A stretch of DNA of 64,000 nt from IMG/VR virus record IMGVR_UViG_3300030693_000012. The stretch is one strand, 5' to 3'. The notes beneath the pieces are model-generated. The model saw only the letters and a program-made list of their open reading frames with translations, ran no database searches and was not told the origin of the DNA. Source of the stretch: a virus. Both the position numbers and the translations under genes were made by a program. Of this stretch, positions 10,123 to 47,907 are shown piece by piece. Each line of letters begins with the position of its first letter. The first letter of the stretch is position 1.

Positions 10123-10500
10123 CTACTTGCTGCACGCCTGATTGACGACGGCAACCGCAGCGTCATAGGTGGAGAAGGGAACCGCGCGGAGGTCGCGCTT
10201 CGCTCCGAAATGCTCGTAGGCGAAAGCGTAGAAGGTGCCAACTTGGCCCTCGTCCACATAGCCGCAGCGGCCAGCCACGAAGACGATGGTCAGCTCGTTG
10301 GCCGCAAGGCGCCGGCCAGGTGCTTCGCTGAACGAAGCGCCCAGTGGAACCGGGGCCGGAGCCAACAGAGGGTCAGCAACCGGTCCGGCGAACGAGACGT
10401 TGACGGCCGTCGGGACGCCAACCTTGGATTGGGCGAATATGCCCGGTGCTACGAGGATGAAAACGATGAGGTAAAAACCGATCTTCCTGATGCTCTGCAT
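10123..10500 (-). CDS. Exported hypothetical protein
   Basis: Signal peptide MQSIRKIGFYLIVFILVAPGIFA|Q. Confidence 0.6.
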   Translation of the reverse strand: MQSIRKIGFYLIVFILVAPGIFAQSKVGVPTAVNVSFAGPVADPLLAPAPVPLGASFSEAPGRRLAANELTIVFVAGRCGYVDEGQVGTFYAFAYEHFGAKRDLRAVPFSTYDAAVAVVNQACSK

Positions 10501-34976: not shown

Positions 34977-35705
34977 CTAGAACGGGCAGCTATGCGTCGC
35001 CAGGCACGCGATATTCACAGCGAGATTCCCATAATTCATAGCCTTGCGCCACCACGGTTGAGGCGCGGTCGCTCGGTCCATGTCCTTGCGGAGATCGGTG
35101 GCGATGCCCGTGACCTGCACTCCAGTCAGCGCCAACTGCTCAGAGGAGTCCGCGCTCCCCTTTAGGAACCGGGCCACGTCCTTGGACGTCACGAGGTCGT
35201 CGAAGTCCTTCACAGACTTCGCCAGGGCGACGCTATTGGCGTTGACGCTGGTATCCACGTCGAGGAAGGTTTTATTCGCGCTCGCGAGGAGAGGGCCTTC
35301 CCCGGCAGTGAAAGTATTGATCGCCATGGTCGCCGCGTCGCCAGTCCCGGCGATGGAGGCCGTCACCCGGTTGAAGCCAGAGAGCGAAGTGTGAACGTCT
35401 GAGAAGAGGTCGGGGAGGGTCTTCTTGAGCATGAACTGCTCTTGCTTCACCAGGTCGCCAGCATCGGCCAAATCCTGCCCCGCGAGCGATAGCGTGCCGC
35501 AGTGGTTGGCCTTGTCCGCAGAGGTCTTCCCGCTGCCCGCGCAAGGCGCGATGAGCTTCGCCGCCACCGCATTGAATCCGGCGGCCGTCGGCTTGAGGTC
35601 GGGGATCTTGTGGCCGGTCGTGACGAGGAACCACACGACGGCTACGCCAACGACGGGGACGGTGCCAAGCGCGATGATCTGGAAGATGAACTTGAGCCGA
35701 TTCAC
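34977..35705 (-). CDS. Membrane-anchored helical protein (i-spanin-like)
   Basis: N-terminal TM helix, long helical periplasmic region, C-terminal Cys; follows the endolysin. Confidence 0.55.
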   Translation of the reverse strand: MNRLKFIFQIIALGTVPVVGVAVVWFLVTTGHKIPDLKPTAAGFNAVAAKLIAPCAGSGKTSADKANHCGTLSLAGQDLADAGDLVKQEQFMLKKTLPDLFSDVHTSLSGFNRVTASIAGTGDAATMAINTFTAGEGPLLASANKTFLDVDTSVNANSVALAKSVKDFDDLVTSKDVARFLKGSADSSEQLALTGVQVTGIATDLRKDMDRATAPQPWWRKAMNYGNLAVNIACLATHSCPF

Positions 35706-36151
35706 TACAGCTCCATCAGAAAGATGTGGTGCCCAATCTGCACCGTCTCATGCACGACGGCCGGATTCCAGGTCTCGGGGAACTTCACTACTTGACCGGT
35801 CATAAGCGTGAACGTCGCGTTGCTCACGATGCCAGCGGGGTTCCAGTAGAGCGTTGCGCCCTCGGTCACATCCACCGTCTCGCCGTCGATGACCTGCCGC
35901 GCGATGGTCTGGGCCAGCGCGAAGCTCGGGTCAGTCGGGCTGGGCTGGAGGTGATACTCCGGATCTGAAGGGACGCTCATCGACGTGAACTGCCAGGCCC
36001 GGTAAACCTCATGCGAGAAGGTCGTGTCGTGCTTCACGGTCCGGTTTCGGATGACGCAAGCCACCGCCGTCATGCCCGCCGCACCCTCGCCGCGCGCTTC
36101 TTTCCAGAGGCAGAGGGCGGTGTCGGAGTAGTCGCTCGGGGTCGGGATCAA
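35705..36151 (-). CDS. Endolysin, SleB/CwlJ-like cell wall hydrolase (Hydrolase_2)
   Basis: CLWKEARGE...AVACVIRNR...QFTS...GATLYWNP...IGHHIF. Confidence 0.9.
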   Translation of the reverse strand: MIPTPSDYSDTALCLWKEARGEGAAGMTAVACVIRNRTVKHDTTFSHEVYRAWQFTSMSVPSDPEYHLQPSPTDPSFALAQTIARQVIDGETVDVTEGATLYWNPAGIVSNATFTLMTGQVVKFPETWNPAVVHETVQIGHHIFLMEL

Positions 36152-36540
36152 TTACCGCCTCGCTTCTTCTGGACGAAATATCCAGCCACCGAGGTCGCCA
36201 CCTGCAGGATCGTGAGAAGTATCGCCAGCCCGCGGATGTCGCCGTTGAACTCTGCGATAGCCAGGGCGTTCGCCCGGCTCGTCGACTCCAGCGCGTCCAT
36301 CCTTTTGATGTCCTCGGTGTGGATGGTCTCGATGTCCTTCACGAGATTGTCGATGCGGGTATCTTCGACAGCGGACTTGATTTCGAGGCCATAGACCGCA
36401 GCCGAATTGGCCGAGCTTTGGGGACTCTGCGCGGCGGCAGGGGGATGGCGCCCATCGAAGATGACGAACAGGCAGACCACGATGAAGGCCATCTTGCACA
36501 GCAGCACCACGCGACCCGTCCGATTCACGAAATCCCCCAT
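36148..36540 (-). CDS. Membrane protein with coiled coil (lysis-associated)
   Basis: Hydrophobic N- and C-terminal segments; adjacent to the endolysin. Confidence 0.55.
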   Translation of the reverse strand: MGDFVNRTGRVVLLCKMAFIVVCLFVIFDGRHPPAAAQSPQSSANSAAVYGLEIKSAVEDTRIDNLVKDIETIHTEDIKRMDALESTSRANALAIAEFNGDIRGLAILLTILQVATSVAGYFVQKKRGGN

Positions 36541-36558
36541 AGTTGCCTCACGCTGAAG

Positions 36559-36924
36559 TTACCCATCGCTCTTTGCAGAAGTCTCCGCTGAGGCCGGAGT
36601 CGACGACGCGTCGATGGGAGTCTTACTTTGCAGCTGGGCCGAAAGCTGATGCATTACATTCTGAGAGTTGGCGGAGACGCCAGTCAGCGTCCCGAGCATG
36701 AGGGTAAGGACCGCCAGGATGCCAGCGCCGGCCGGGTGGGTTTTGTCGGTGATGTAGACGTACGTCATCGCCGCAGTAACCGACAGGAACCCCAAAGAGC
36801 AGACGGCGAAGGTCGCAAGGAATACGAACCGGGTCGTCGACGGGCCACCCTCGAAGGGCAGCTCCTTCAGTATCCCCCATACCGATAATGTCTTGACACG
36901 CGCGTCGAGCTCTTCGTCTGCCAT
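36559..36924 (-). CDS. Putative holin (2 TM)
   Basis: Two TM helices; upstream of the endolysin. Confidence 0.6.
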   Translation of the reverse strand: MADEELDARVKTLSVWGILKELPFEGGPSTTRFVFLATFAVCSLGFLSVTAAMTYVYITDKTHPAGAGILAVLTLMLGTLTGVSANSQNVMHQLSAQLQSKTPIDASSTPASAETSAKSDG

Positions 36925-36954: not shown

Positions 36955-39864
36955 TCAGAAGCTGACGTGCCCACCGGCATTCGCGCCGAAGTGAACGCCC
37001 TGCGGAGCGGGAGTGCCGAGGGTGATATTCCCTGTCCCGGTCGCCGCGAAGGTCAGCACCCCGGCGGTGTCCGAGGTGGCGCTAGAGGGCGCGCCAGTCC
37101 CCGCGACTGTGTAGACGGTGTTGGGCGTGAGATCGGAGACATACTGCGTCGTCGCCCCCGAGGCTGGGTAGGTCACCCCGGTAAAGGTAGCTGGCCACGC
37201 ACGCATGAAGCAAACCATCGACGCGCCAACCTTGCCGCAATCGAAGTTCTGGCCTCCGGTAGACTGCACCAGCGTCGTCGAGCTCTGCGTCAGGCTTGAT
37301 GTTCCCCATTCCATCACAGATAGAAACTTGGAGTTGGTAGCTACCGACGACGGGTTCACTTCGAGCGACGTATACGGCTCCCAATCAGCAGCCTGATCTG
37401 AGCTTCCAGACGTCAATCCAGCATTGGTAATGGTCGCCCCGGACGGCAGTAGGCTGGTGAAATATGCCTTCTGCGAACTGGACCGAGTGAGCCAGCTTGC
37501 CACGCTTCCAGAGATGGTCGGGTTTCCCGTCGTCATCAGATAAAGCTGCTTCGTCCAAGTGTTCGTGGTCGAGTCGCCACGGTCGTAATAGACAACCTGA
37601 TTCGATCCGCGCAGATAGATCAGCGACCGGGACGCGGTGATGCCAGAAGATAAATAGCCGAAGCCTCCATAAGTCGATCCATTGTAGGCATTGGATTGAT
37701 CGATGATTGCAGCCACATAGGTTGGCAGCTCGCTGTGCAGCAGTGTGATAAGTCCTTGCTGATAGGAGTGCCAGAACTGGCCTCCGTACTGCGCGGCATA
37801 CCCTTGCTCGCAACTATTCGCAACTGTGCAACTGGTTTGCGTTGGATTGTTCTGGAGGGCCACCAGGTTCTGCTGCGGAGCTGTCGTCATCTGATCGTTG
37901 TAGTCATTGAATTCAGCGCGGCCCTTGGTGATGTACTCGCCGTCAGAGTAAATATCGAACCGCCCATCGAACTCATGCTCATGGTCGATGGCCGTATTGG
38001 GCGCGTAGTAAGAAAACAGCGTTCCGCCCGATGTCCAGTTATTGCGCACCACGATGTGCTGGTTTCCAGCGTCGTACAGGTCGGTGGGCAGGGAAGGCCG
38101 TGGATCGGCTGGCAGACTGGCAAGCGGATCGGTAGCGGGTTGGGTGATAAACAAATCAGGAAGTACATCTTGTGCGTAGGTATTCGTTGTTTCGTTATTC
38201 CAGCCTGCGTAAAAGCAAGCCGAAGGGCATCCGTAGGATGTTCCAAGTGGGCCGCCAAAAGCGGTATTCAGTATTGTCCACAGCATTGCCGAATCGCCCT
38301 CAGTCCTCCCTATATAAGAGTTTCCCAACATTGTGGCCGATTGCGTGACAAAGTTGGATGGATATTTGTAGTAAGTAAGCTCGTCCCCCGTATTCAAGAA
38401 GTTAGTCGATCCCTGTATAACGGCTCCGCCTGCCGTGGTGAGGATGGGGCCAGTCAAAGATGCAAGATCGGTGATGTAGCGCAAGTCCCAGTAACTCGAC
38501 GAGGCAAGGCTCATCTGCGGCCCATAGGCAATCGGATCGAGATAGCCAGCCGTGTATGCGGCGTCGAGCGCCCACTTCAGCTTAGAAATTGATCCTCCAT
38601 AGCTGTTGCCCTCACTTGGCTCTCCGCCACGTCCAAGACCAAAGCAAGGAGTTTTCGTTCCCAGCGGTGCCCATGTGCTGTCGCAACTTGGCACGGTCGA
38701 AAGGTTCGCGTAAGCGGTCTGGTATGCCTGCCACGTCACGTTCGGGTCTTCCATGTCGGCCCAGTCTTTGTACATCATGCCTCCCGTGAAATACGTCCAG
38801 TAGGCATGTAGGGAACCAGCCGTCCCATCGGGACAGACCTGATAACGCGTGGCTGAACAGGTGTTCGTCAGCGGGGGATCGTCTGTCGTGTTGTCATTGA
38901 ATGTCAGGGCGTCGGCCACCAGATAAAGCATCTTGCTCTGGGTGTAGTTGTTTCCCATCGCCCGCTGATTTGTATAGTCAAACTCGTTCCCCGTATCGAA
39001 CTGCGAGGAACTGTTGTAGTTACCGATCACCGCAAGCGTTCCATTGCCGCTGTTGGTGACAGTAAACTTTGCAAAGGCCGCCAGAAATTCCCGCGCCTGG
39101 ATCAAGTCTGTTGAGTTTAGATATCCCCCCGCCATCAGCCAATCTGGAGTGAGCGTAAATGCTTTCGCACTGTCCGACCAGTGGTTTCCTCCATAGGCGC
39201 TCGGGTTCGCGATGAACTGATCCATCATGTAAGTAAAAATGTCGCGTCCCGCGCAACCCCATTGGTAACTAGGATCAGAAGGATCAATCATCGACATAAA
39301 GGCAAAGAGATTGGCGTCCCCTTCTTTGTAGCTTTGCGACTGGTCCGAGGAGGGGCCGCTTCCACCCACGCAGGCCGATCCATTCCATGTGCTGAAAGTC
39401 CAAATGCCAGAGTCTGTCGTGTACAAGTTGACGGCCGCGGTACGCAGCGCCTGGTAAAGCGTGTTGCCACTCGTCGCCTTAGCTCGCAAACCGGGCAACA
39501 TCGCCGCCGTTACCAGCAGCCGCGGGTGGCTCGTCGCCGGAGTTGGAGACCCCGTGAACGTTACGGTCGAGGTTGCCGTAACCGAGCCGACGTTGGTGGT
39601 AGCAGTCAGGGTGTCGGTCTCAGCAGTTGTGTCGTAGAGCGCGATGGTACAAGGCTCGTTCACTACGCAAGGATTGGTGCCAACCAGCGTCCCGGTCCCG
39701 CTCGTGATCGACCAGGTGACGGTCTTGTTGTTCACACCCTGCACGACGGCTGTGACGGTCTGATAAGTGCCGATGGGGGCGATGGCGACGGTGGGATACA
39801 CCGAAAGCGTCTGCGCCCATACATGGGCCGAGCACAGCAGTGCGAAGGTAAGTAGGCGTCTCAT
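36955..39864 (-). CDS. Exported Ig-like + heparinase II/III-type polysaccharide lyase-like protein
   Basis: Signal MRRLLTFALLCSAHVWA|Q; Ig-like VNNKTVTWS; HPRLL; DHEHEFDGRFDIY motif. Confidence 0.7.
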   Translation of the reverse strand: MRRLLTFALLCSAHVWAQTLSVYPTVAIAPIGTYQTVTAVVQGVNNKTVTWSITSGTGTLVGTNPCVVNEPCTIALYDTTAETDTLTATTNVGSVTATSTVTFTGSPTPATSHPRLLVTAAMLPGLRAKATSGNTLYQALRTAAVNLYTTDSGIWTFSTWNGSACVGGSGPSSDQSQSYKEGDANLFAFMSMIDPSDPSYQWGCAGRDIFTYMMDQFIANPSAYGGNHWSDSAKAFTLTPDWLMAGGYLNSTDLIQAREFLAAFAKFTVTNSGNGTLAVIGNYNSSSQFDTGNEFDYTNQRAMGNNYTQSKMLYLVADALTFNDNTTDDPPLTNTCSATRYQVCPDGTAGSLHAYWTYFTGGMMYKDWADMEDPNVTWQAYQTAYANLSTVPSCDSTWAPLGTKTPCFGLGRGGEPSEGNSYGGSISKLKWALDAAYTAGYLDPIAYGPQMSLASSSYWDLRYITDLASLTGPILTTAGGAVIQGSTNFLNTGDELTYYKYPSNFVTQSATMLGNSYIGRTEGDSAMLWTILNTAFGGPLGTSYGCPSACFYAGWNNETTNTYAQDVLPDLFITQPATDPLASLPADPRPSLPTDLYDAGNQHIVVRNNWTSGGTLFSYYAPNTAIDHEHEFDGRFDIYSDGEYITKGRAEFNDYNDQMTTAPQQNLVALQNNPTQTSCTVANSCEQGYAAQYGGQFWHSYQQGLITLLHSELPTYVAAIIDQSNAYNGSTYGGFGYLSSGITASRSLIYLRGSNQVVYYDRGDSTTNTWTKQLYLMTTGNPTISGSVASWLTRSSSQKAYFTSLLPSGATITNAGLTSGSSDQAADWEPYTSLEVNPSSVATNSKFLSVMEWGTSSLTQSSTTLVQSTGGQNFDCGKVGASMVCFMRAWPATFTGVTYPASGATTQYVSDLTPNTVYTVAGTGAPSSATSDTAGVLTFAATGTGNITLGTPAPQGVHFGANAGGHVSF

Positions 39865-42167
39865 TAGAATGACCAGTGACAACCGGATGTAGAACCGAGT
39901 GCGTTAGGCACGTCTGTTATTGCAAAATCTCCAGCGGTCGCCGTTGCTGGAATCACCAAGCCGGTGGTCGAGTGGTCCGTACCGTTGATCGGCTGCGTCG
40001 AGTTGAAATTCTTCAACGTGATCACTTGGCTGGTTTGATTGTTGATCGTGTAGACGGCCCCCGACTGACCGACGCATGAGGGAAGAGTCAAAGTTTCCCC
40101 GGCGGAAGCCTGCGTAAGTTCAATGTAGCCATCCGACGCGAGCATTTGATATGCGGTGGTGGTCACCGGAGCATTGGTGACAGTCATAGTTAGCCCAACG
40201 TTTTCACCGGAAAAAGCGGTGTATGTTTGTGCTCCCGAAGGCAAGGTGCTTTGACCGGTGAGATAATACAGCGGCGTGCCGCCCCCAAGTCCCGGACCCG
40301 TTGCAGTCACCCATACCACAGGAAACTCACCGGCAACCGCATTCAGTGGTGCCGTGAATCCAACACCCGCAACAAAGGTCTGATTGCCGGATGTCGCAGT
40401 AGGTGTCACGGTGAATGAAGAACCCGGAACGATTGTAAATGTTGGTGCTGTTCCGGTCGCATACGCGAGAGTGATTGGAGTGGTTGTTGGCGCTGCATTG
40501 AATCCCAAGGTGATTGAACTTAGTGGCCCTGAGATAAGTGGAGAGGGAACCACAATCGCCCAGTTCGCTGGCATATTATTGTTGTACGAACCTGGTATTG
40601 ACCCGGCGGTGCCAACAGCACCCGCCACCGTTTGGACAATGGCGTTCGGATTGCTCTTGTTATACCCGAAGTAATATTCCATCGAGTTCCACGCATCGGC
40701 CTGCATGAGCAAATAGCCAGCATTTTGCAGATGGACGAAATCAGACTGATAATAAGTCCCGTTGGTGTTACACGATGAACATCCGAGATAGGGGTCGGCT
40801 GCGAAGTCGAGGATTCCTGCTGCTCCCCACGCCTTCCAGTTTTGCCGAATAAGGTTGTCCAGAGCGATTTGATTTGCGTTCCATGTCAAACCGTTGGGCG
40901 GAGCCGGTGAGCTGCCTCGACTTATCATCGTACCCACGAAAACCTTGCACCCGGCTTGCGTGAGTAGCTGAATTTGATTTGCTAAATACCCCGCTACATT
41001 CGCCGCGGTGGCTGTCGAATAATTAGAAAAATTATTTGTTCCATCGAAGACTGTTGCTATCTGTGGGCCTTGATTGGAGGAACAGTTAGGGGCGGCGCTA
41101 CCGGCGTTTGTGGACATGATGTAGTCAGCCGTTTTCCCCGCATTGCCGAGGTTTGTTACAAGCCCAAATGTAGGAACAGGCGCAGGTGGTTGATTCACCC
41201 AACAATCACCCGGAACAGTACCGTAAAGGCAGTAAGTGAGCGAGTCCCCATAGGCATACCAATTAGGCCCTATGGAGTTCCATTGGACGCCTATACTCCC
41301 TGCTCCTCTCGCCTGAATATCAGAACTTGAGGCTGCATATTCCTGAGCAACTTGAGCCGCCGTCAGTTCTGTAGACCATCCAATAAATTCGTACTCAGTG
41401 ACAATTGACGCTGAATTTAGGCCGCACGATTGGCATGCTCCTAATATCCAGTTCCCCGACAGTTGAGTTCCCGCGCTATACCCGCGATTGGTGTACGGCG
41501 TCACTTCCACTCCGTCAAAATAAAAGTGATCGTAGTCACTGCCGCTGGTTCCAAAAGTAACGATGACAACGTGGTTGCCCGAAGACAGGTTCACGGGGGA
41601 AGTGGTCGTATCAGCACCGTACTTCCACAGTGCCAGGCCGGGCGTAGTAGACCAATTGTTGCCTCCAACCGAGCTGATCCACGCACTCAAGAATATCCAG
41701 GGGCCGTTGTTTGTGGCTCCGCTAGTGCTGGGTGTCAAAACTGCCGCTTCGGCTCCACTACCGGACGAACCCGTTATAGGGATGTTGATTACAAACTCGA
41801 AAGTCCGCAGATTGTTGACGGAGGTTGGAAGAGGCGCACATCTAGCGTTGTCGGGAAAGAACAACCCAACTAGGGTGGACTGTGGGGCATTCGCACCTGT
41901 GCATAGAGTGGCGTTATTTCCGTTACCGCTAGAATCCGTTATGGTCGTGCCACTGATGAATTGAGGAAGCATGTTCAGAAAAATCTCGGCGCCTGAGATA
42001 TGCTGCGATGTGTTCGCGATCAAGCACGTTGATTCTGACAGGCAAGGGTTGCTGTTGATCGTCGTAGTGGTAGATACGTGCGCCGTCTGCCCATTGATCG
42101 TTGATTGACCGAGTGCGGGTAACGCGAATACCAGAGGCAGCGCGAGAATAAAATTACGGAGTGACAT
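39864..42167 (-). CDS. Exported LamG/lectin-like + SGNH esterase protein
   Basis: Signal MSLRNFILALPLVFALPALG|Q; DSSGNGNNAT LamG-type start; SGNH blocks GDSLT, GNAG, DGTNN, DFVH. Confidence 0.75.
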   Translation of the reverse strand: MSLRNFILALPLVFALPALGQSTINGQTAHVSTTTTINSNPCLSESTCLIANTSQHISGAEIFLNMLPQFISGTTITDSSGNGNNATLCTGANAPQSTLVGLFFPDNARCAPLPTSVNNLRTFEFVINIPITGSSGSGAEAAVLTPSTSGATNNGPWIFLSAWISSVGGNNWSTTPGLALWKYGADTTTSPVNLSSGNHVVIVTFGTSGSDYDHFYFDGVEVTPYTNRGYSAGTQLSGNWILGACQSCGLNSASIVTEYEFIGWSTELTAAQVAQEYAASSSDIQARGAGSIGVQWNSIGPNWYAYGDSLTYCLYGTVPGDCWVNQPPAPVPTFGLVTNLGNAGKTADYIMSTNAGSAAPNCSSNQGPQIATVFDGTNNFSNYSTATAANVAGYLANQIQLLTQAGCKVFVGTMISRGSSPAPPNGLTWNANQIALDNLIRQNWKAWGAAGILDFAADPYLGCSSCNTNGTYYQSDFVHLQNAGYLLMQADAWNSMEYYFGYNKSNPNAIVQTVAGAVGTAGSIPGSYNNNMPANWAIVVPSPLISGPLSSITLGFNAAPTTTPITLAYATGTAPTFTIVPGSSFTVTPTATSGNQTFVAGVGFTAPLNAVAGEFPVVWVTATGPGLGGGTPLYYLTGQSTLPSGAQTYTAFSGENVGLTMTVTNAPVTTTAYQMLASDGYIELTQASAGETLTLPSCVGQSGAVYTINNQTSQVITLKNFNSTQPINGTDHSTTGLVIPATATAGDFAITDVPNALGSTSGCHWSF

Positions 42168-44265
42168 TGATAGCTCCTAGACTTTCTGATTCGAGAGTGG
42201 TTCCGTTGAATGAATCAAATGCCTGCAGTGCACATGTATTAGCGGGCATCGTGCCGATCCCGGTCATTCCCCCATTCACACCTGAGGGCCACGTCCAAGA
42301 GTATGGACCCCCACTGGTAGGCTGACATACACGGAAGACTATGTGTTGACTTAAGGCAATGCCTGTGATCGTGGGTGTGGTGTTGCCGCTCAAGGTGATG
42401 GTCTGAAGACAATTGGTGGCTGTGATGACGGGAGTTGTCCCGCTTAGAGTTGTGACGGTTGGGCATCCTCCGCCGCCAGTCCCGTTCGCGGCGAGCGTGA
42501 TGGTGCCGTCGGCAGCGATCGTGATGTTCGCATTCGTATAAGACCCCGGCGTCACCGCCGTCGAGGCGATGTTCGCATGGGGCAAGAGGCCGGTCACGTC
42601 GGCGCTCGCGAGATTGACAGCCGAGAACGTCATCTGCGCAACCGCACTCGAGAGCGCGCTGACATGAGCGATTCCGGCAGCGGAGACGGTGAGGGGGAAC
42701 TGGATGCCGTAGGCCGTCATAGACGAGCCGCTGGGTCCGAGGAGGTTGACGTTCCCGGCGAAGAGGGTTGGGAGCGAGGTTCCAGGCGCAAGGCCGATCG
42801 GAGCGGCGACGCCCGCGGTTCCGGTAGTTGCTACCGAACTCGGCGCGATGGCCTGCCCTGCGATGGCCGCAACGACGTTCGTCGCATTGACTGGGGTCGT
42901 GACCGAGATCGCGCCCGTGGAGTTGGTGATCGTGGTTCCGTCTGGCTTCACACCGCCCAGCGTGCTGGAGGTCGCGGCAGGAAGGGTATAGGTAGAGGCG
43001 TTGGCAAGGACGAAAGCGTCCGTGGCGAGCTTGGTCGAGTTGTCGCCGGTGGTCTGCGTGACGGCGGAGATGCCGTTCGGGAGCGCCGGGGTGCCGCTCA
43101 AATTGGCCGCTGTGCCGCTGGTGTTCGCTGCGATCGACGCCGGAATATCCCCAGAAACGAGAGCGCGGACGCCAACCGCACCAGAAGATCCGTTGGGAGT
43201 GGCAACCACCTCGTTCGCCGGACCCGAATAGCTGGATCCAGCCCCTCCGCCTTTGGGCCAGCACCAGACATTGGTGTATGCGGTTGCGCCATCTAGGTAG
43301 CAGGTGATCAGCAGCTCGGCCCCCGAAGTTGTGGGCATGGCGGGAGGCGAGCCGACAGGAAGGCCGTTCGACAGCCAATAGACGCCAGGAGCTGTGAAAG
43401 ACCCGCTAAAGGGCGTGGTACTCGACTGGATGAGCTTGAACGTGATCTCGGCGGTGCCGGTGCCAACGGGCGGCTCAATGATGGTCAGAGCGCACGAGTC
43501 GCCATCCGTCAACGTGAGGCTCTGATTATTCCCGTTCAAAGGGTCGATCGTCGCGGAGGTAGTGCAGGTCCCCTCGCTGACCTCGCCGGCCGCGAAGAGA
43601 GGGCCAGTGAACTGGTCAAAGGTCGGATGGAATATGAGGCCAGGCCCCGTGAAGTCGCCGACGCTGCACTTCGGGTCGGTGTTATAGCCAATCTCAGCCG
43701 CAAACTGGGCATATCCCAACGACGCGAAACAGATCGGTATCCCACCCCCTACTTGGTACTGGTAGAGAGACAGATAGGGCACACCACCGGAGCTGTTGCC
43801 GAGTTCAATCCCGAGCGTTCCCGGAAGGACGCCGAAGCCGGAGGTCTGGACGTAATATCCTCCGAGGTCTTGGGCTGACACATAGCCAGTAGGATCGACT
43901 TCGATGCCGCCCGGCTGAATATAGCCAATCTGACCCGTCGAGTTCACGACGGTGGCTTCCCGCCCCGGAGAGTCGACAAGATTGATATTGAACGGCCCAG
44001 TCAAGAGATTGTGGGTGTCCGTGATGGCGAACGTGCCGACGTAGGGCCCATCGATGCCAGCGACGGTGACGCCATCCGGAAGGTAAATCTGGCAGTTCGT
44101 CAGAGGACTGAGGGTGCAGTCACCCGCCGCAGAGAAATCGACGACCGCCATGCCATTTGTGGAATCGGTGGTCGATGGCACATAGAGATGGCCGCCCACC
44201 TTGGACTGCGCCGAGGCGATGATCGAGGACAGAAGGATAACGGCCAGGGAGAGGTTTTTTAGCAT
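42154..44265 (-). CDS. Tail-fibre-like protein with a signal peptide
   Basis: Signal MLKNLSLAVILLSSIIASA|Q; fibre motifs YTLPAATSSTLGGVK and GDNSTKLATDAFV; C-terminal TITLSGN...YSWTWPSG module. Confidence 0.7.
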   Translation of the reverse strand: MLKNLSLAVILLSSIIASAQSKVGGHLYVPSTTDSTNGMAVVDFSAAGDCTLSPLTNCQIYLPDGVTVAGIDGPYVGTFAITDTHNLLTGPFNINLVDSPGREATVVNSTGQIGYIQPGGIEVDPTGYVSAQDLGGYYVQTSGFGVLPGTLGIELGNSSGGVPYLSLYQYQVGGGIPICFASLGYAQFAAEIGYNTDPKCSVGDFTGPGLIFHPTFDQFTGPLFAAGEVSEGTCTTSATIDPLNGNNQSLTLTDGDSCALTIIEPPVGTGTAEITFKLIQSSTTPFSGSFTAPGVYWLSNGLPVGSPPAMPTTSGAELLITCYLDGATAYTNVWCWPKGGGAGSSYSGPANEVVATPNGSSGAVGVRALVSGDIPASIAANTSGTAANLSGTPALPNGISAVTQTTGDNSTKLATDAFVLANASTYTLPAATSSTLGGVKPDGTTITNSTGAISVTTPVNATNVVAAIAGQAIAPSSVATTGTAGVAAPIGLAPGTSLPTLFAGNVNLLGPSGSSMTAYGIQFPLTVSAAGIAHVSALSSAVAQMTFSAVNLASADVTGLLPHANIASTAVTPGSYTNANITIAADGTITLAANGTGGGGCPTVTTLSGTTPVITATNCLQTITLSGNTTPTITGIALSQHIVFRVCQPTSGGPYSWTWPSGVNGGMTGIGTMPANTCALQAFDSFNGTTLESESLGAINVTP

Positions 44266-45299
44266 GAGGAGGCTCCGAGCGTGAACGGGACACTAAGGCT
44301 GTTGATGCTCATGTACATCCAGACGGTCACGTTCGAACCGTACGCGTTGGTCATCGTCACCGAGACCGGCGCATGCATCGGGAAGCCGAAGCCGCCCGAG
44401 CTGAAGGAGCAGGAATTACTCAGCGCGACCACGTAGATGTACTGGTCTGAAGGGTTGAGAGGTCCCCAGCTCGTTTGAGCCCCGAGACCCGCGCTTGGAA
44501 GTGTGCCGGTGGCTCCGACCAGAACGGCGCTGGTTCCAGAAGCGGTCAGCCCGGTCGCTCCGGCCGTTCCGACTCCAGCAAACTCGCGGACGGCGAAGGA
44601 TCGTCCCTGTGTGGCGCCGGCGGTCTGGGCTGGGGCCGTCGATGTCGTGGTGGCGCTCCAGGTGGTGTTTGCCGAGTAGACGTAAGGGAAGACCGCCGAA
44701 GTGAAAGGCGTCGTCAGCGTCACATTGTGCGTGCCGTCGGAGACGGTACCGCTGGCCGGTGTGCCGTTGCTGTAGCTCAGGGTGCAGGTGTTCGGATTGG
44801 TCGAGTTGTTGCCAGCCTCGAAGGGGCCGCCCGCCGCGGTGCAGGACATGCTCACCGCGAAGGGCGATCCGATAGCCGAAATGCATCCGTCGGTGATGGT
44901 GGCAACCTGACCAGAGAGGCTGAGGGTGACCGTTGGCCCCGTGCAACCGGACCCGCTGCCCGCAGACCCGAGAGCCAGCCAACTCGACGAGCTTCCGGGG
45001 GTGATGCCGGTGTTGTTCGCGATCGTGCTGAGGTAGGTGCCCCCAGAGTAGGTGACGATGTTGTCGAGCTGGTAGTTGATCCCGGACGACCACGCGCCCT
45101 GATAGGGATTCAGCAGCGCCCATAGGGTGTTGTCGATCTTGGTCATCGAGCCGTTGTAGCAGACGCCCCAGGCCGTGACGCCATTCGGCGGAAGACAGAA
45201 GCTGAAGTGCGGGGTCTGGGGGAACCCACCTTGGGCGCGGGCAGACGCCGCTCCGAAGAAGAAGGCGGCCATCGCCAAGACCAGTTTGAGCTTGCGCAT
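44259..45299 (-). CDS. Exported protein with a CBM5/12-like carbohydrate-binding repeat
   Basis: Signal MRKLKLVLAMAAFFFGAASARA|Q; YQGAWSSGINYQLDNIVTYSGGTY...PGSSSSW. Confidence 0.7.
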   Translation of the reverse strand: MRKLKLVLAMAAFFFGAASARAQGGFPQTPHFSFCLPPNGVTAWGVCYNGSMTKIDNTLWALLNPYQGAWSSGINYQLDNIVTYSGGTYLSTIANNTGITPGSSSSWLALGSAGSGSGCTGPTVTLSLSGQVATITDGCISAIGSPFAVSMSCTAAGGPFEAGNNSTNPNTCTLSYSNGTPASGTVSDGTHNVTLTTPFTSAVFPYVYSANTTWSATTTSTAPAQTAGATQGRSFAVREFAGVGTAGATGLTASGTSAVLVGATGTLPSAGLGAQTSWGPLNPSDQYIYVVALSNSCSFSSGGFGFPMHAPVSVTMTNAYGSNVTVWMYMSINSLSVPFTLGASSC

Positions 45300-45412
45300 T
45301 ACTTCCTCCCGAATAACCTCATGATGTGCTTCCGCAGGAAGAACCCGGCGGTTGCGAGAGCAGCGCCCAGAGACTGCAAAGCCAGAAAGCCAGAACCCGG
45401 ATCGACATACAT
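45299..45412 (-). CDS. 37-aa single-TM YxDPG miniprotein
   Basis: Manual translation MYVDPGSGFLALQSLGAALATAGFFLRKHIMRLFGRK; TAATG overlaps on both sides. Confidence 0.75.
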   Translation of the reverse strand: MYVDPGSGFLALQSLGAALATAGFFLRKHIMRLFGRK

Positions 45413-46041
45413 TAGTAGGTGGCCCTCCAGTGAATGGGGATCGCGTTCAAGCTGCCCGCGCCGCTGCCTCCGATATTGGTGGCAGCACGAATCACCGCCG
45501 TGGCGCCGGTCGTGCTAGTGCCGAGGTGGTAAACCGTCACCGCATCCTCGTTCGTCCCATCCGGATAGGTGCCCAGGCTGAGCGTGAGGACAGGGTTTCC
45601 GGGGAAAGTAGCAGGGAACGTGATGGCCTGCGTCGCCAGCGTTCCGCCGCCCACCGCGCCGGAGGTCACGGTGCCGTAGGCCTCATACAGAAAGCCGCCG
45701 GCTCCATCCGGGCTCTTGATGAAGGTTCCGTTCCCGTTTCGCGTGGTGACTATCGGCACGGCGGCCTTCGCAGCAGCAGCAACCGCAGCAGCGAATAGGG
45801 CGGTGAGGGCCGAGACATTGCCGTCATCGAGGACATCGACGTTCCCGTTTTCGACCGAAATCCAAGGAGCCAGCATCGCCATAGCCATCGTCGCTTGGCG
45901 CCAGCACTTATTCGCGCTGGAGGAAGCCGCAACGCCAGCCACGAACCCGGTCGGGAGGTAGCTTGAGGCCAAAAAGGTCGCTTGGCTGTCTACGTTCGCT
46001 CCGCCACCGCCCGCCACTTGCTGATAATCAATCGTTGCCAC
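45412..46041 (-). CDS. Short baseplate-proximal tail fibre protein
   Basis: SAANKCWRQATM motif of baseplate-attached fibres; C-terminal ITFPATF domain; only 209 aa. Confidence 0.75.
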   Translation of the reverse strand: MATIDYQQVAGGGGANVDSQATFLASSYLPTGFVAGVAASSSANKCWRQATMAMAMLAPWISVENGNVDVLDDGNVSALTALFAAAVAAAAKAAVPIVTTRNGNGTFIKSPDGAGGFLYEAYGTVTSGAVGGGTLATQAITFPATFPGNPVLTLSLGTYPDGTNEDAVTVYHLGTSTTGATAVIRAATNIGGSGAGSLNAIPIHWRATY

Positions 46042-46057: not shown

Positions 46058-46720
46058 CTATACCGCTGGTGGTGCCCACTTGCCAGAATCCCAACCGGCT
46101 ACGACCGGTGTCTCCAGATCAAAGCCGAAGATCGGGGGGCCGGTGATGAAGTAATAGCCCGTGATGCCGACGCCCGCGGACTTCAGCGAGAGCTGCCCGC
46201 CGAGCAAGAGCGCCGTTTGAACTGCCGTCAGGGGAGGACCAATGACGTAAATCGTAATCGTCATGTTCTGGTTGTCCTGAATAAGCAGAGTGTACCCGAG
46301 GGGTGCAAATGCGAACTCCAGCACAGCCGCCGTGCTGCCCGCCTTCCCGGTCCAGTAATTGACTGCGATTCGCGCCCTCAGCACCAGGCGATAGTCGTCG
46401 TCATCGAGCAGGTACATGACGTCGCCGGTTTCATCGGGGCCCAGCCAGTTGCCTTGATCCCAGCCGAGGCCGACGGTGTCGAACGAGAAGAAGACGCCCG
46501 TCAGAGGTATCGCCAACTCGCGGGAAATCCCAATCCAGAGCCCCACCGCATCGAGCTGCGAGCCGACCGCCAGGTCGAGGTCGTACTTGAGGAACATCTC
46601 GGCGTAGAGGTTCTGCAGGTCCACATACGGCTGGCAAGCCTCCGCTACCATCTGCCGGAATAGCGGCTGGTTTGCATGCTCAGAGGTGATGCGCGCGAGG
46701 TATTGGTCGACCGTCACCAT
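46058..46720 (-). CDS. Baseplate wedge protein (DUF2612-like)
   Basis: DLDLAVGSQLDAVGLWIGISR...LDDDDYRLVLRARI. Confidence 0.85.
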   Translation of the reverse strand: MVTVDQYLARITSEHANQPLFRQMVAEACQPYVDLQNLYAEMFLKYDLDLAVGSQLDAVGLWIGISRELAIPLTGVFFSFDTVGLGWDQGNWLGPDETGDVMYLLDDDDYRLVLRARIAVNYWTGKAGSTAAVLEFAFAPLGYTLLIQDNQNMTITIYVIGPPLTAVQTALLLGGQLSLKSAGVGITGYYFITGPPIFGFDLETPVVAGWDSGKWAPPAV

Positions 46721-47907
46721 TAGGTCACGACCGAAACGTTCGCGAGAAGCCCGACGGCGGCCGCGTTGAATGCGATCGAGATGTCCGCCGAGGAACCGGG
46801 CGACGGGGCAGTCCCGATATACAGGGAGGTGATGACGAAGGTCTGCTGCTGAGGCGTGCCGGGGAGACCGGCCTCCGCGACGAGCCAGGCGTCATAGACG
46901 TCCTCGCCGATCGCAAGCTCGTTGATGAAGTTGACGATGGCAGCCTGAATAAGCGGCTCCGTCGAACCCACCCAGCCGGGCAGGACAGTAACGTTGACGA
47001 TGGCATAAATCTCGACCTGCGCCAGCTCGAAGAAGTTGATGGTGATGGGCAGCCCAGACGGGTCAGCAATCGTCTCTGAAGTCGTGCCGTAGGTTCCACA
47101 CCCTTGGTCCTTCTCGAGAAGAATAGCGGTGGCGATGGCCGTGGCGTCGCCACCCTGCACGACGGCGCAGATCGAATGGCTGGGGATGCCGTTGCTGTCC
47201 GTGGTGGCGCTGTCGTTCTCGTACACCAAGGAGCGAACCACGCCGGGGATGTCAGCCACCGCGCCCATGATCGCGCCGATGGAGGTCTGCGATGGGATGG
47301 CCGTCGAGATAGTCTGGCGCTGGCGGACGGCCCCATCGGTTTCGGTGGAGGATCCGATATCGGAAGCAGCCGGATTCGTGATCGTGTCCCACCCGAGCTG
47401 CGGGGTGTAGATGGTAGTGATCGTGTTCGGCGGGGCGACAATGGCTCCGACGGCGGCGCATGTCACGGTCACGGGTATGGTTCCGGACGACGGAATCAGC
47501 ACGGACGCGGGCAGGTTCCAAAGATTCGGCGGGGTCGCAGTGTCCTGCGCTTGGCCGTTGACGATGGTGAAGCCAGGCGCGCCCACAACATTGCAGATGG
47601 CGGTGCTGTTGGTTCCAGCTTCGCGGGCCATGCCGTTTATCTTGATGGCGGTGTCGAGCTGGACGCCCACGGCCGTCTGAGGGCTGTAGGCATTGAAGGC
47701 GGCGACGGCGGCGACGTTCGAATCGTAGATCGCTTGAGCTTCGATCGCCAGGAGCTGATAGTCCTGCGTGCCGGTGGCGAGATACACGTCATCACCCCAA
47801 ATGCTCTGATAGGTCGCGATCTTCGAGTTGATGATGTCCTGAAGAGCGGGGATCGTGATGCCGGTGGGTGTGATGGTGGGACCGAGGGTCGCCAGTGGGT
47901 AGGTCAT
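46720..47907 (-). CDS. Baseplate J-like protein
   Basis: ETDGAVRQR...IPGVVRSLVYEND...PSHSICAVVQGG. Confidence 0.9.
   Translation of the reverse strand: MTYPLATLGPTITPTGITIPALQDIINSKIATYQSIWGDDVYLATGTQDYQLLAIEAQAIYDSNVAAVAAFNAYSPQTAVGVQLDTAIKINGMAREAGTNSTAICNVVGAPGFTIVNGQAQDTATPPNLWNLPASVLIPSSGTIPVTVTCAAVGAIVAPPNTITTIYTPQLGWDTITNPAASDIGSSTETDGAVRQRQTISTAIPSQTSIGAIMGAVADIPGVVRSLVYENDSATTDSNGIPSHSICAVVQGGDATAIATAILLEKDQGCGTYGTTSETIADPSGLPITINFFELAQVEIYAIVNVTVLPGWVGSTEPLIQAAIVNFINELAIGEDVYDAWLVAEAGLPGTPQQQTFVITSLYIGTAPSPGSSADISIAFNAAAVGLLANVSVVT

Follow-up and report, generated by a model that had tools for sequence, protein, structure and literature searches.

Predicted Sec signals on a cassette of fibre-like, esterase and lyase proteins in the tail-end locus of a soil phage of Acidobacteria

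The tail-end locus of a soil phage of Acidobacteria (IMG/VR record IMGVR_UViG_3300030693_000012, of which a stretch of 64,000 nucleotides, hereafter the window, was analysed) raises the question of why four consecutive genes for fibre-like proteins and polysaccharide-degrading enzymes begin with what look like export signals, and where their products would act. No paper on a signal-bearing fibre or depolymerase kit in tailed phages was found in the literature. The baseplate genes are followed by a gene for a 209-aa fibre, a 37-aa ORF and the genes for proteins of 346, 703, 767 and 969 aa, and every ORF of the locus (209, 346, 703, 767 and 969 aa) is on the minus strand. The four large ORFs and the shorter fibre ORF are located where a preliminary description had placed them:

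46058..47907, minus strand: baseplate wedge genes DUF2612/Phage_Wedge1 and Baseplate_J-like, upstream of the fibre genes; E217/Pam3-type contractile tail
45412-46041, minus strand: 209-aa "stub" ORF (ORF list), a predicted tail fibre with no signal peptide; aa 1-100 baseplate anchor, aa 128-209 gp53-like tip
45299..45412, minus strand: 37-aa ORF (MYVDPGSG...), hydrophobic in the middle and basic at its end; TAATG overlaps with both neighbours
44259-45299, minus strand: 346-aa ORF (ORF list)
42154-44265, minus strand: 703-aa ORF (ORF list)
39864-42167, minus strand: 767-aa ORF (ORF list)
36955-39882, minus strand: lyase ORF of 975 aa with TTG as start codon and of 969 aa with the ATG at 39864
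34977..36924, minus strand: lysis cassette, directly downstream of the 969-aa gene

The four large genes are translationally coupled. GGAG-type ribosome-binding motifs are found ~6-13 nt 5' of the signal-including starts of the 346-, 703- and 767-aa genes (GGGAGG, 6 nt upstream of the 346-aa ATG), the ATG of the 969-aa gene at 39864 overlaps the stop of the 767-aa gene, and the start choices agree with those that independent gene callers made on other assemblies of this phage. Sites resembling promoters or terminators show no excess over chance in the locus. Encoded in the lysis cassette are a holin-like protein of 121 aa with two TM segments, a membrane protein of 130 aa, a Hydrolase_2 endolysin of 148 aa that lacks a signal, and a protein of 242 aa whose N-terminus has a TM segment. 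No integrase was detected in a non-exhaustive scan of the ORFs.

The N-termini of the four proteins are MRKLKLVLAMAAFFFGAASARA, MLKNLSLAVILLSSIIASA, MSLRNFILALPLVFALPALG and MRRLLTFALLCSAHVWA, each followed by Q. In all four, a basic n-region leads into a hydrophobic core of 12-15 residues that is free of charges, the residues at -3 and -1 are small, and +1 is Gln; they are predicted to be signals of the n/h/c type ending in A or G before Q:

45234..45299, minus strand: predicted signal peptide of the 346-aa protein, 22 aa, ARA-Q
44259..45233, minus strand: predicted mature 346-aa protein, fibre-like, 8 Cys
44209..44265, minus strand: predicted signal peptide of the 703-aa protein, 19 aa, ASA-Q
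42154..44208, minus strand: predicted mature 703-aa protein, fibre-like, 12 Cys
42108..42167, minus strand: predicted signal peptide of the 767-aa protein, 20 aa, ALG-Q
39867..42107, minus strand: predicted mature 767-aa protein, lectin and SGNH esterase, 14 Cys, low GC (0.52)
39814..39864, minus strand: predicted signal peptide of the 969-aa protein, 17 aa, VWA-Q
36955..39813, minus strand: predicted mature 969-aa protein, heparinase II/III-type polysaccharide-lyase fold, 14 Cys, paired

Signals were called by a simple heuristic together with alignments. The heuristic was positive for all four genes; among the ~53 other ORFs of the window it yielded one clear signal peptide, and besides this it scored two lysis-cassette membrane proteins and, weakly, two further ORFs. 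In relatives with this tail type from other hosts, 1 of ~60 downstream ORFs was positive. In an alignment of 50 members of the lyase family, the pre-sequence is always basic and then hydrophobic, with a mean column identity of 0.41 versus 0.69 in the next 43 residues; the -1 residue is Ala in 88% of the sequences and otherwise Gly or Ser, and the +1 Gln is invariant. The same Gln and fixed cleavage site are found in the host's own copies. Since the sequence varies while its character is kept, the cleavage site is fixed, the +1 Gln is invariant and cysteines are paired (see below), the N-termini are read as functional signals; the sequence evidence supports their belonging to the true starts and acting like functional Sec/SPI signals, and the starts, the ribosome-binding motifs and overlaps, and the N-terminal features bear out the earlier claim of such signals with a +1 Gln on all four proteins. 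Sec export of the kit is, by the same kind of evidence, strongly indicated; cleavage and the final location of the four proteins (virion versus free) we infer.

Mature Cys counts are even throughout (8, 12, 14 and 14 in the 346-, 703-, 767- and 969-aa proteins), the other virion proteins of the window having 0-4. The median Cys content in the 346-aa family is 1.81% in signal-bearing versus 0.31% in signal-less members (p 1e-10), and 69 of 80 signal-bearing members have an even count; in the family of the 703-aa motif the contents are 1.41% and 0.42% (p 2e-10), with even counts in 38 of 47 signal-bearing members. The lyase family has six conserved Cys pairs. Paired cysteines are no proof of export, since Agrobacterium phage Milano has a disulfide network in a virion that is assembled in the cytoplasm (PMC10811340).

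The signals are kept in homologues from other phages, including a cultured phage of Acidobacteria, as the preliminary description had proposed to check. A siphovirus-type contig has five consecutive signal-bearing genes after the J-like protein, a contig with a DNA polymerase A gene has three before the endolysin, including a lyase homologue, and gp339-gp342 of the cultured Tunturiibacter phage Tunturi_5 are also signal-bearing. In IMG/VR contigs, signals are carried by 30 of 59 motif-bearing ORFs, and in some contigs signal-bearing proteins are the only large candidates at the fibre position. The pattern of predicted signals spans unrelated tail types and Tunturi_5, and relatives of this tail family from other hosts are without it. 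The joint motif of the 703-aa protein, described below, occurs overwhelmingly in Acidobacteriaceae/Terriglobales genomes.

The bodies behind the signals form a kit of predicted fibre or adhesin, esterase and lyase proteins, as claimed before, and the Pfam and fold evidence agree on this. The 346-aa protein (phrog_5073 tail fibre match, E 1e-5; a family of 334 clusters) consists of a PNLGL-type fibre N-terminal motif (aa 29-60), which aligns in both signal-bearing and signal-less relatives, a single CBM5/12-like unit (aa 66-110) and the remaining C-terminal domain (aa 110-346). Of the CBM5/12-like repeat described earlier, this one unit was matched, weakly (CBM_5_12, E 0.0017, below the Pfam cut-off). 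In the 703-aa protein, an N-terminal domain without a match (aa 21-365) and a distal domain, likewise without a match, flank a fibre joint motif that matches Phage_head_fibr (E 2e-5, aa 372-464):

42898-43170, minus strand: conserved fibre joint motif, aa 366-456 of the 703-aa protein, from alignment

The previously noted motifs NSTKLATDAFV (aa 409-419) and YTLPAATSSTLGGVK (aa 426-440) were both located in this protein; the joint aligns at 70-80% identity across ~45 aa between proteins that are otherwise unrelated. These alignments show what appear to be ordinary phage fibre modules directly behind the predicted signals of both proteins.

In the 767-aa protein, a lectin sandwich of the ConA/LamG-like type (aa 55-265) is predicted ahead of an SGNH esterase (aa 300-500), and the predicted C-terminal part is rich in beta structure. 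The LamG/ConA-like call is by fold only, and the model (pLDDT 67, moderate) matches carbohydrate esterases and lectin domains. Lipase_GDSL_2 was matched just under the Pfam curated cut-off (E 1.2e-6), and the GDS/N/DxxH blocks are intact (GDS307, N378, D476/H479); S309, N378 and H479 are invariant in 13 homologues, D476 not being among the reported invariants. Fold, near-cut-off Pfam match and catalytic blocks thus agree with the LamG-like and SGNH esterase assignment made earlier, and the modelled protein is shown as a lectin plus SGNH esterase with a complete predicted catalytic set. It is 35% identical to gp342 of Tunturi_5, a "tail fiber protein".

The 969-aa protein, for which no Pfam match was obtained, was modelled with high confidence (pLDDT 90, pTM 0.92) as an Ig-like domain (aa 19-104) followed by an alpha/alpha toroid (aa 120-575) and then by a beta-sandwich (aa 595-950). 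The suggested check by structure prediction and Foldseek retrieved heparinase II (2fut, E 1e-22) and also PL15, PL17 and PL12 lyases, so that the earlier Ig plus heparinase II/III-like reading holds and the model shows a predicted heparinase II-type lyase fold. Its homologues number 159 at E <= 1e-3, the 120 listed being 40-74% identical, and it belongs to a large Acidobacteriaceae family. The three chromosomal homologues examined (P0129, P0130 and P0131) are all encoded in EPS-synthesis clusters, next to Wzy, flippase, glycosyltransferase, exosortase and Poly_export genes. The GC3 of the lyase gene is 0.66, versus 0.64 in a host homologue and 0.78-0.80 in the baseplate genes, and its composition agrees with the host gene; the protein matches the host enzyme from the first mature residue, with no added adaptor. 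These comparisons show a probable phage copy of an exported Acidobacteriaceae EPS-cluster enzyme. The lyase is a captured host enzyme, not a fibre, and the signal came along with it.

The 209-aa protein had been called a fibre stub, which it need not be. Its residues 1-105 match a tail fibre family (phrog_11303, E 1e-20), it is 33% identical to the N-terminus of the tail fibre of Burkholderia phage Magia (E 1e-13), and a weak match to Gp53-like_C (E 0.003, under the cut-off) suggests a tip domain; fibres with the same anchor in relatives are 197-473 aa long. It may therefore be a complete short fibre, judging from these alignments, and the phage may have an ordinary cytoplasmic fibre with the four-gene set as an add-on. 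Of the earlier export interpretation, the signals, their conservation and the fibre/esterase/lyase kit stand; a reading of the lyase as a fibre does not, and the 209-aa protein is not necessarily a stub. Gene calls in other assemblies of the phage include the neighbouring 37-aa ORF; it is absent from ~210 other loci fetched, and an NCBIfam search gave no match.

With a probability of about 0.62, we favour a late-operon cassette whose products are exported by Sec, cleaved by signal peptidase I and folded with disulfides in the periplasm of an Acidobacteriaceae host, targeting the host's surface polysaccharide. Given the translational coupling and the lack of a promoter or terminator standing out, the four genes would be co-expressed with the tail genes. 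Given the export signals on its proteins, folding of the kit probably takes place outside the cytoplasm, the compartment in which particles of tailed phages are assembled: Sec would export the proteins, signal peptidase I would cleave them, and disulfide-bonded folding would follow in the periplasm. The esterase and the lyase would be soluble enzymes that strip and cut EPS, initially from the periplasm, the site of EPS polymerisation, and after lysis by holin and endolysin in the surrounding matrix, which would aid progeny escape and the reaching of new cells. The signal-less 209-aa fibre on the baseplate would be the basic adsorption device, and the 346- and 703-aa proteins would either be free adhesins or attach to particles when the compartments are mixed by lysis. 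The fibre-like bodies and the tail-operon position fit virion parts, which runs counter to a reading as free proteins.

Assembly could also proceed from two compartments, with exported, cleaved and disulfide-bonded fibre-like proteins, perhaps also the enzymes, joining cytoplasmic baseplates after holin opening; the mature virion would then carry receptor-binding proteins never folded in the cytoplasm. We consider this possible but doubtful. The 703-aa protein carries the joint (STKLATxAFV) that directly follows the baseplate anchor in the one-piece Magia fibre. The PNLGL-type motif starts 3-6 residues past the predicted cleavage site in 14 signal-bearing proteins and 6 residues after Met in one signal-less fibre, so that cleavage would restore an ordinary fibre N-terminus, and where family members lack the signal, they begin like standard fibres. 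Translational coupling to structural genes and the contigs with signal-bearing proteins as sole large fibre-position candidates point the same way, as does the canonical holin-type lysis cassette with its cytoplasmic endolysin, by which the compartments would mix at lysis. In T4, fibres join finished particles in vitro, a classical result that also counts for such assembly. However, none of the four proteins has a recognised docking module, the lyase is the host enzyme without adaptor, a signal-less fibre with anchor and tip is already present, and the Tunturi paper is silent on virion proteomics of the signal-bearing proteins.

It is improbable that the N-termini stay uncleaved and tether the proteins to the outer side of the inner membrane up to the time of holin depolarisation, as in SAR endolysins, keeping the enzymes inactive or sequestered until lysis. 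Phages time exported endolysin activity by uncleaved N-terminal segments, which sets a precedent (PMC6116005), and the 703- and 767-aa N-termini are TM-like by a 19-residue hydrophobicity window; however, the cores of only 12-15 residues, followed by A-x-A or A-x-G before Q with a helix breaker, have the pattern of cleaved signals, and the lyase family, host copies included, has the fixed site and invariant Gln. SAR domains are longer, Gly/Ala-rich and without a cleavage motif, which likewise counts against this. Very improbable is a set of prophage-expressed morons that remodel the host surface or block superinfection, unrelated to virion production. Morons are classically found in the gap that separates tail fibre from lysis genes, where Magia encodes an SGNH esterase and an acyltransferase; in the present phage the GC of the esterase and lyase genes is foreign and lower, and Q-rule signal-bearing Porphyromonas phage genes have been read in this way (PMC10367356). 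Against it, the genes overlap or abut on the strand of the structural genes with no promoter or terminator standing out, the non-exhaustive scan yielded no integrase, and the pattern recurs in Tunturi_5, a cultured phage isolated on a host strain. That there is no export, the N-termini being inert leftovers or mis-chosen starts of ordinary cytoplasmic fibres, is the textbook expectation for tailed phages; here its probability is close to nil, since the starts are fixed by ribosome-binding motifs and stop/start overlaps, the signal is retained over hundreds of diverged relatives despite sequence drift and is strongly associated with paired cysteines, and downstream starts would leave ~60 nt of conserved, coding-like sequence without explanation.

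Among known systems, virion depolymerases and deacetylating tailspikes include gp63.1 of coliphage G7C, an SGNH esterase, and the beta-helix gp9 of P22. As there, predicted esterase and polysaccharide-cleaving activities are encoded in a receptor-binding locus; unlike here, those proteins bind the particle by an N-terminal domain and lack a signal peptide. The alpha/alpha-toroid fold of the lyase is rare in catalogued viral proteins, and the best viral fold matches to its model, beside one unnamed top match, are mostly to baculovirus ODV-E66. This toroid-type chondroitin lyase with a hydrophobic N-terminus belongs to a eukaryotic enveloped virus, and the match is weak (TM ~0.2-0.3), with no relation of descent. 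An exported glycanase of alginate operons is AlgL. Another exported EPS-cluster glycanase, WceF of Pantoea stewartii, documents phage/host traffic of such enzymes (PMC7949094). The chromosomal relatives of the 969-aa protein are likewise signal-bearing and embedded in EPS-synthesis clusters, but WceF is a tailspike-like beta-helix hydrolase, whereas here a heparinase II-type lyase has kept its signal and the direction is apparently from host to phage.

Routing of tailed-phage late proteins via host Sec before lysis is shared with the secreted Lys44 of Oenococcus phage fOg44 and the SAR endolysins (PMC6116005); these are peptidoglycan hydrolases of lysis cassettes, whereas here the fibre-like, esterase and lyase proteins carry the signal and the endolysin does not. 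The +1 Gln at the predicted SPI site of all four proteins and of 50 of 50 aligned lyase homologues resembles the Q-rule signal peptides described as Bacteroidetes-specific in a paper without mention of Acidobacteria (PMC5837995). Phages of Porphyromonas gingivalis have genes of unknown function with Q-rule signals (PMC10367356), which, unlike here, were not identified as fibre or depolymerase genes. The layout is closest to Magia, with its gene order of baseplate J, DUF2612 wedge, 642-aa fibre and lysis: the baseplate genes are ~45% and the fibre anchors 33% identical, the STKLATxAFV joint is shared and the locus is likewise flanked by wedge and lysis genes. A single cytoplasmic, signal-less protein of Magia unites anchor, joint and distal part, whereas here the anchor is on the 209-aa protein and the joint inside a separate, signal-bearing protein with 12 Cys.

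The window covers almost the complete genome of a tailed phage that has not been cultured, with a GC content of about 0.61, almost every gene on the minus strand and no tRNA found. The structural genes include those for a portal, large terminase, major capsid protein, neck terminator, sheath-type tail and a tape measure with a lysozyme domain, as well as those for a Dit-like protein, a hub, a sheath initiator, Baseplate_J and a DUF2612 wedge. The genes located 3' of the wedge genes are, in order:

45412-46041, the 209-aa fibre
45299-45412 (-), a 37-aa ORF, MYVDPGSGFLALQSLGAALATAGFFLRKHIMRLFGRK, with TAATG overlaps with both neighbours and a GGAGGG motif upstream
44259-45299 (-), the 346-aa fibre-like protein with a predicted signal peptide
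42154-44265 (-), the 703-aa fibre-like protein with a predicted signal peptide
39864-42167 (-), the 767-aa esterase (lectin and SGNH domains) with a predicted signal peptide
36955-39864 (-), the 969-aa lyase (Ig domain and heparinase II-like fold) with a predicted signal peptide

The lysis cassette that follows encodes a two-TM holin-like protein, a second membrane protein, a signal-less Hydrolase_2 endolysin and a protein with one N-terminal TM segment. An identical fibre protein is encoded in at least 22 contigs from the ENA, JGI and Logan assemblies, and the gene order is the same in all of them. The 37-aa ORF is annotated as a gene in other assemblies; as a general part of the system this YVDPGSG ORF was rejected, being missing from about 210 other fetched loci. 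A search of NCBIfam returned zero matches for the four large proteins, the 209-aa fibre, the 37-aa ORF and three lysis-cassette proteins, and sequence searches of the PDB gave nothing significant for any of the four.

In the preliminary description, each of the four large proteins was said to begin with a Sec/SPI signal, and this is upheld by a simple heuristic combined with inspection. All four N-termini have a positive n-region and an uncharged hydrophobic core of 12-15 residues (signals of this kind typically have about 7-15); positions -3 and -1 hold small residues, and position +1 holds Gln. Cleavage is predicted at ARA↓Q (346-aa), ASA↓Q (703-aa), ALG↓Q (767-aa) and VWA↓Q (969-aa). Mis-called starts have been considered and rejected: GGAG-type motifs lie about 6-13 nt 5' of the ATG of the 346-, 703- and 767-aa genes, as well as of the 209-aa fibre gene and the 37-aa ORF, and independent gene callers pick the same starts. 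For the 969-aa gene, the ATG is a better choice than a TTG six codons upstream because it overlaps the stop codon of the preceding gene. The heuristic is positive for four of four cassette genes, and in the rest of the window (about 53 ORFs) it finds one clear signal, two lysis-cassette membrane proteins and two weak positives. In 37 control contigs that share the fibre anchor but differ in GC, and thus presumably come from phages of other hosts, the genes after the fibre are ordinary and signal-less, with one positive in about 60. The one clear signal elsewhere in the window, MQSIRKIGFYLIVFILVAPGIFA↓QSKV, belongs to a 125-aa protein (10123-10500, minus strand) encoded outside the tail region, which has no Pfam match.

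The evolutionary pattern expected of a cleaved signal is seen in an alignment of 50 members of the lyase family, in which the pre-sequence drifts (mean column identity 0.41, vs 0.69 just after it) while remaining basic and then hydrophobic throughout, with a mean core hydropathy of about +3. The residue at -1 is Ala in 88% of the sequences and Gly or Ser in the remainder, and the mature N-terminus, xLYxYP...APRGSYQTVTA, starts at a constant distance from the cleavage site. The signals could instead be anchors of the SAR type, which use a longer, weakly hydrophobic, Gly/Ala-rich segment that has no SPI cleavage motif. This reading, which would hold the proteins at the inner membrane, is unlikely given the short cores, A or G at -1, small or aliphatic residues at -3 and the conserved Gln at +1.

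Cysteine content provides a second line of evidence. The mature 346-, 703-, 767- and 969-aa proteins contain 8, 12, 14 and 14 cysteines, all even numbers, and other structural proteins of the window contain 0-4; the lyase family has six conserved Cys pairs. A third line comes from comparisons within families. Relatives of the 346-aa protein that carry a signal have a median of 1.81% Cys, with an even count in 69 of 80, and those that lack one have 0.31% (Mann-Whitney p 1e-10). Proteins with the STKLATxAFV-type fibre segment of the 703-aa protein, termed here the joint motif, have 1.41% Cys with a signal vs 0.42% without (p 2e-10), and the count is even in 38 of 47 signal-bearing cases. Disulfides also form in the virion of phage Milano, which is made in the cytoplasm (PMC10811340), a caveat to the cysteine argument. 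The lyase family, the cysteine counts and the within-family comparison are independent and agree that the signals, as judged from sequence, are functional; that the four proteins are not exported at all is unlikely.

Gln occupies +1 in all four phage proteins (window positions 39814, 42108, 44209 and 45234) and in 50 of 50 lyase family members, mostly from Acidobacteriaceae; this alignment-based count is unbiased, whereas the +1 Gln counts in the families of the cysteine survey are biased by a site-picker that favours Gln-flanked sites. Such a Q-rule of signal-peptidase substrates has been described as specific to Bacteroidetes, in a paper that does not mention Acidobacteria (PMC5837995). The statement in print that comes closest to signal-bearing phage genes of the present kind concerns Porphyromonas phages, in which certain genes without known function obey the Bacteroidetes rule (PMC10367356). 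The invariant Gln suggests that the rule extends beyond Bacteroidetes and apparently applies to Acidobacteriaceae as well. In three Acidobacteriaceae genomes, type I glutaminyl cyclase (PF05096) gave a single weak match, in one of them.

The 969-aa protein had been described as an Ig domain joined to a heparinase II/III-like lyase, and both the domain and the fold have been confirmed by a structural model and Foldseek. The model, built from the 50-sequence alignment (pLDDT 90, pTM 0.92), starts with the signal helix, after which come an Ig-like domain at residues 19-104, an alpha/alpha toroid at 120-575 and a beta-sandwich at 595-950, so that the toroid and antiparallel beta-sandwich of heparinase II/III-type lyases (the PL12/15/17/21 fold) are both present in it. 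The best Foldseek match is heparinase II (2fut, E 1e-22, TM 0.50/0.63), followed by PL15 Atu3025, PL17 and PL12. Hepar_II_III_C and Hepar_II_III_N were not matched, and the family-level searches yielded a language-model lead only; because the protein has no Pfam, PHROG or NCBIfam match at E <= 0.1, it is classed, on the strength of the model, by its heparinase II/III fold and is not assigned to any named PL family. At E <= 1e-3 it has 159 homologues, of which the 120 listed are 40-74% identical, and the Tyr, His, Asn and Arg that are invariant in the family are all kept in the phage copy. Viral proteins with this fold are few in the catalogue, the best named matches being mostly baculovirus ODV-E66.

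The chromosomal homologues of the lyase that were looked up (three of three) lie inside EPS-synthesis clusters, next to genes for a Wzy polymerase, a flippase, many glycosyltransferases, the exosortase EpsH/EpsI and Poly_export. The esterase and lyase genes (36955-42167) have a GC content of 0.52 and 0.57, respectively, against a backbone with GC 0.61-0.64 and GC3 0.71-0.80; GC3 is 0.54 in the esterase gene, 0.66 in the lyase gene, 0.64 in a host homologue and 0.78-0.80 in the baseplate genes. This low-GC block matches the composition of host EPS-cluster genes. Another signal-bearing homologue of the lyase is encoded by the last tail-side gene before the endolysin in a 62-kb contig that also has a DNA polymerase A gene. 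On the simplest reading, phages have acquired an exported EPS-processing enzyme of their host together with its signal. WceF of Pantoea, a glycanase of an EPS cluster that has a tailspike fold (PMC7949094), is a published parallel in the opposite direction.

The LamG-like domain and SGNH esterase attributed to the 767-aa protein find support as well, the former in a model of moderate confidence, the latter in its catalytic blocks and in that same model. Lipase_GDSL_2 scores 29.6 bits against a curated cut-off of 32.9, and G307-D308-S309, G376/N378 and H479 are invariant in 13 homologues; together with the DFVH block (D476-H479) of the window protein, these supply SGNH blocks I (GDS), III (GxN) and V (DxxH) and the Ser-Asp-His triad. 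The model (pLDDT 67) places a ConA/LamG-like sandwich at 55-265, resembling the lectin domains of trans-sialidases, and an SGNH domain at 300-500 that resembles the GDSL protein 4rw0 (TM 0.79 on target) and also the carbohydrate esterases 9kr1 and 7toh. Pfam and PHROG searches with the excised residues 535-767 and 50-300 found nothing. In a tblastn search of 50,697 deposited phages, the 767-aa protein matched solely gp342, a 'tail fiber protein' of Tunturiibacter phage Tunturi_5, and the 703- and 969-aa proteins were unmatched.

Established fibres share the joint motif, a PNLGL-type motif and phrog_5073 with the two fibre-like proteins. The reported motif NSTKLATDAFV is present in the 703-aa protein at aa 409-419, within a segment of about 45-90 residues (aa 366-456; Phage_head_fibr-like) that is 70-80% identical in otherwise unrelated proteins; the flanks, residues 21-365 and 457-703, have no Pfam or PHROG match when excised, and, as a lead only, every feature neighbour of the protein is a viral fibre cluster. 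In the 346-aa protein, the CBM5/12-like unit (PF02839) proposed earlier does have a match at aa 69-102, but a weak one (E 0.0017, 18.8 bits vs a cut-off of 26.2), in a single copy, giant relatives having 8-36 repeats. The same protein matches the tail-fibre family phrog_5073 at aa 66-122 and has a C-terminal domain common to 334 protein clusters, residues 110-346 having no Pfam or PHROG match when excised; the contigs that encode its close relatives proved too short to be informative on gene context. In 14 signal-bearing proteins, the 346-aa one among them, the PNLGL-type fibre N-terminal motif starts 3-6 residues past the predicted cleavage site, and in a signal-less fibre it starts 6 residues past the initiator Met; this similar spacing implies that the N-terminus left by cleavage would correspond to the one found on ordinary fibres.

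The first 100 residues of the 209-aa protein (match to phrog_11303) constitute the baseplate anchor of its tail family, 33% identical to the N-terminus of the one-piece 642-aa fibre of Burkholderia phage Magia, the Baseplate_J protein of which is 45% identical; over its last 80 residues, the protein shows a weak match to a gp53-like fibre tip. The label of 'stub' given to it in the preliminary description is unsafe because fibres with this anchor range from 197 to 473 aa in relatives, and what the gene encodes may be a short fibre that is complete. In the Magia fibre, SSTKLATTAFV comes immediately after the anchor, whereas here the same joint motif occurs in the signal-bearing 703-aa protein; compared with the one-piece fibre, anchor and joint are split over two proteins that would start in different compartments. 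The fibre-lysis slot of the cultured phage Magia (L086:11001-12965) holds, on the opposite strand, genes for a membrane acyltransferase and an 'outer membrane-associated' SGNH esterase, annotated as host-like, which represent a moron-type counterpart of the cassette.

The known kinds of system involved are phage depolymerase/fibre loci and Sec-exported phage proteins. The four proteins are probably exported by the Sec/SPI route, fold oxidatively in the periplasm and are expressed late together with the tail genes, the last in view of the coupling between genes and because promoter- and terminator-like sites in the locus do not rise above chance. That the cassette is a moron is unlikely in view of this coupling, despite the host-like composition of the esterase-lyase block. 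The most likely role of the esterase and lyase is that of soluble enzymes stripping EPS, at the site of Wzy-type EPS polymerisation in the periplasm and, after lysis, in the matrix. Neither carries an adaptor, and the lyase and the host enzyme are collinear. The fibre-like 346- and 703-aa proteins may be free adhesins or may dock on particles once the holin opens the membrane. Docking is favoured by the shared fibre modules, and the canonical holin and cytoplasmic endolysin make mixing of the compartments plausible; against it, no docking module (a baseplate- or fibre-attaching N-terminus) was found on the four signal-bearing proteins, in which a motif, lectin or Ig domain lies directly behind each signal, whereas the 209-aa protein has one. 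A complex prediction with three copies each of the 209-aa fibre and residues 24-135 of the 346-aa protein scored 0.00, which has no bearing either way. A more far-reaching possibility is a virion built in two compartments in phages of Acidobacteriota and apparently Bacteroidota, with capsid, tail and baseplate made in the cytoplasm and with fibres and depolymerases that are Sec-secreted, SPI-trimmed to Gln/pyroGlu, disulfide-bonded in the periplasm and docked just after the holin breach. We regard this as tentative, at somewhat more than one chance in four; docking on virions after export, if shown, would be categorically new.

Tailed-phage assembly is taught as purely cytoplasmic, and annotation pipelines take the presence of a signal peptide to argue against a protein being part of the virion. 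The present locus belongs to a recurring exception, in which export signals of the host type and paired cysteines are found in the variable genes for host recognition and polysaccharide degradation, and which is also seen in unrelated tail types, a cultured Acidobacteria phage and hundreds of metagenomic relatives. If free-acting, the proteins would form a dedicated secreted EPS-clearing kit, partly taken from the host EPS machinery, that helps to explain how phages deal with soil Acidobacteria and their heavy slime and offers a source of matched EPS-degrading enzymes; if virion-joined, they would reveal a new assembly route. Either case bears on how host range is predicted and how receptor-binding proteins are recognised in soil viromes, and recombinant expression would require periplasmic, oxidising conditions. 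A full-text literature search found no description of signal-bearing tail fibre or depolymerase genes.

Homologues in related phages do keep the signal, as had been proposed for checking, in several contigs and in the cultured 309-kb jumbo phage Tunturi_5 (PP885688.1, L085:1486-9797). In the latter, the consecutive gp339-gp342, two small proteins and two annotated as 'tail fiber proteins', of 1293 aa (14 Cys) and 1186 aa (12 Cys), have signal-like N-termini ending in AQ, GQ or FGQ; the Tunturi paper makes no mention of signal peptides or tail fibres, and virion proteomic data were not found. A siphovirus-type contig has five consecutive signal-bearing genes after a J-like protein, and another contig has two. 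The joint motif occurs overwhelmingly in genomes of Acidobacteriaceae/Terriglobales, with Bacteroidota next, and in IMG/VR 30 of 59 complete motif-bearing ORFs have signals, often in runs of two to four, on contigs with GC 0.37-0.61. Runs of signal-bearing, motif-carrying fibre-like ORFs are also found in low-GC IMG/VR contigs (GC 0.36-0.45; L166, L184, L197, L182, L189 and others), presumably from phages of Bacteroidota, so the phenomenon is not confined to Acidobacteria phages.

The joint motif is also found near the C-terminus of giant Acidobacteriaceae proteins, and in the case checked the giant adjoins a phage portal gene, so that this occurrence in host proteins is not counted against a phage origin of the motif. 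These giants of 1,500-3,700 aa (L013:5057-10684 and L033:95-11164 in contigs of Acidobacteriaceae MAGs, also L031 and L016) have N-terminal membrane or signal segments and carry the motif 150-400 aa from the C-terminus. The gene order after the giant is the same in L013 and L033, the L013 genes encoding a HipA_2-like kinase, a DUF3037 protein and the phage portal, and this synteny beside housekeeping genes looks like a resident phage-derived element.
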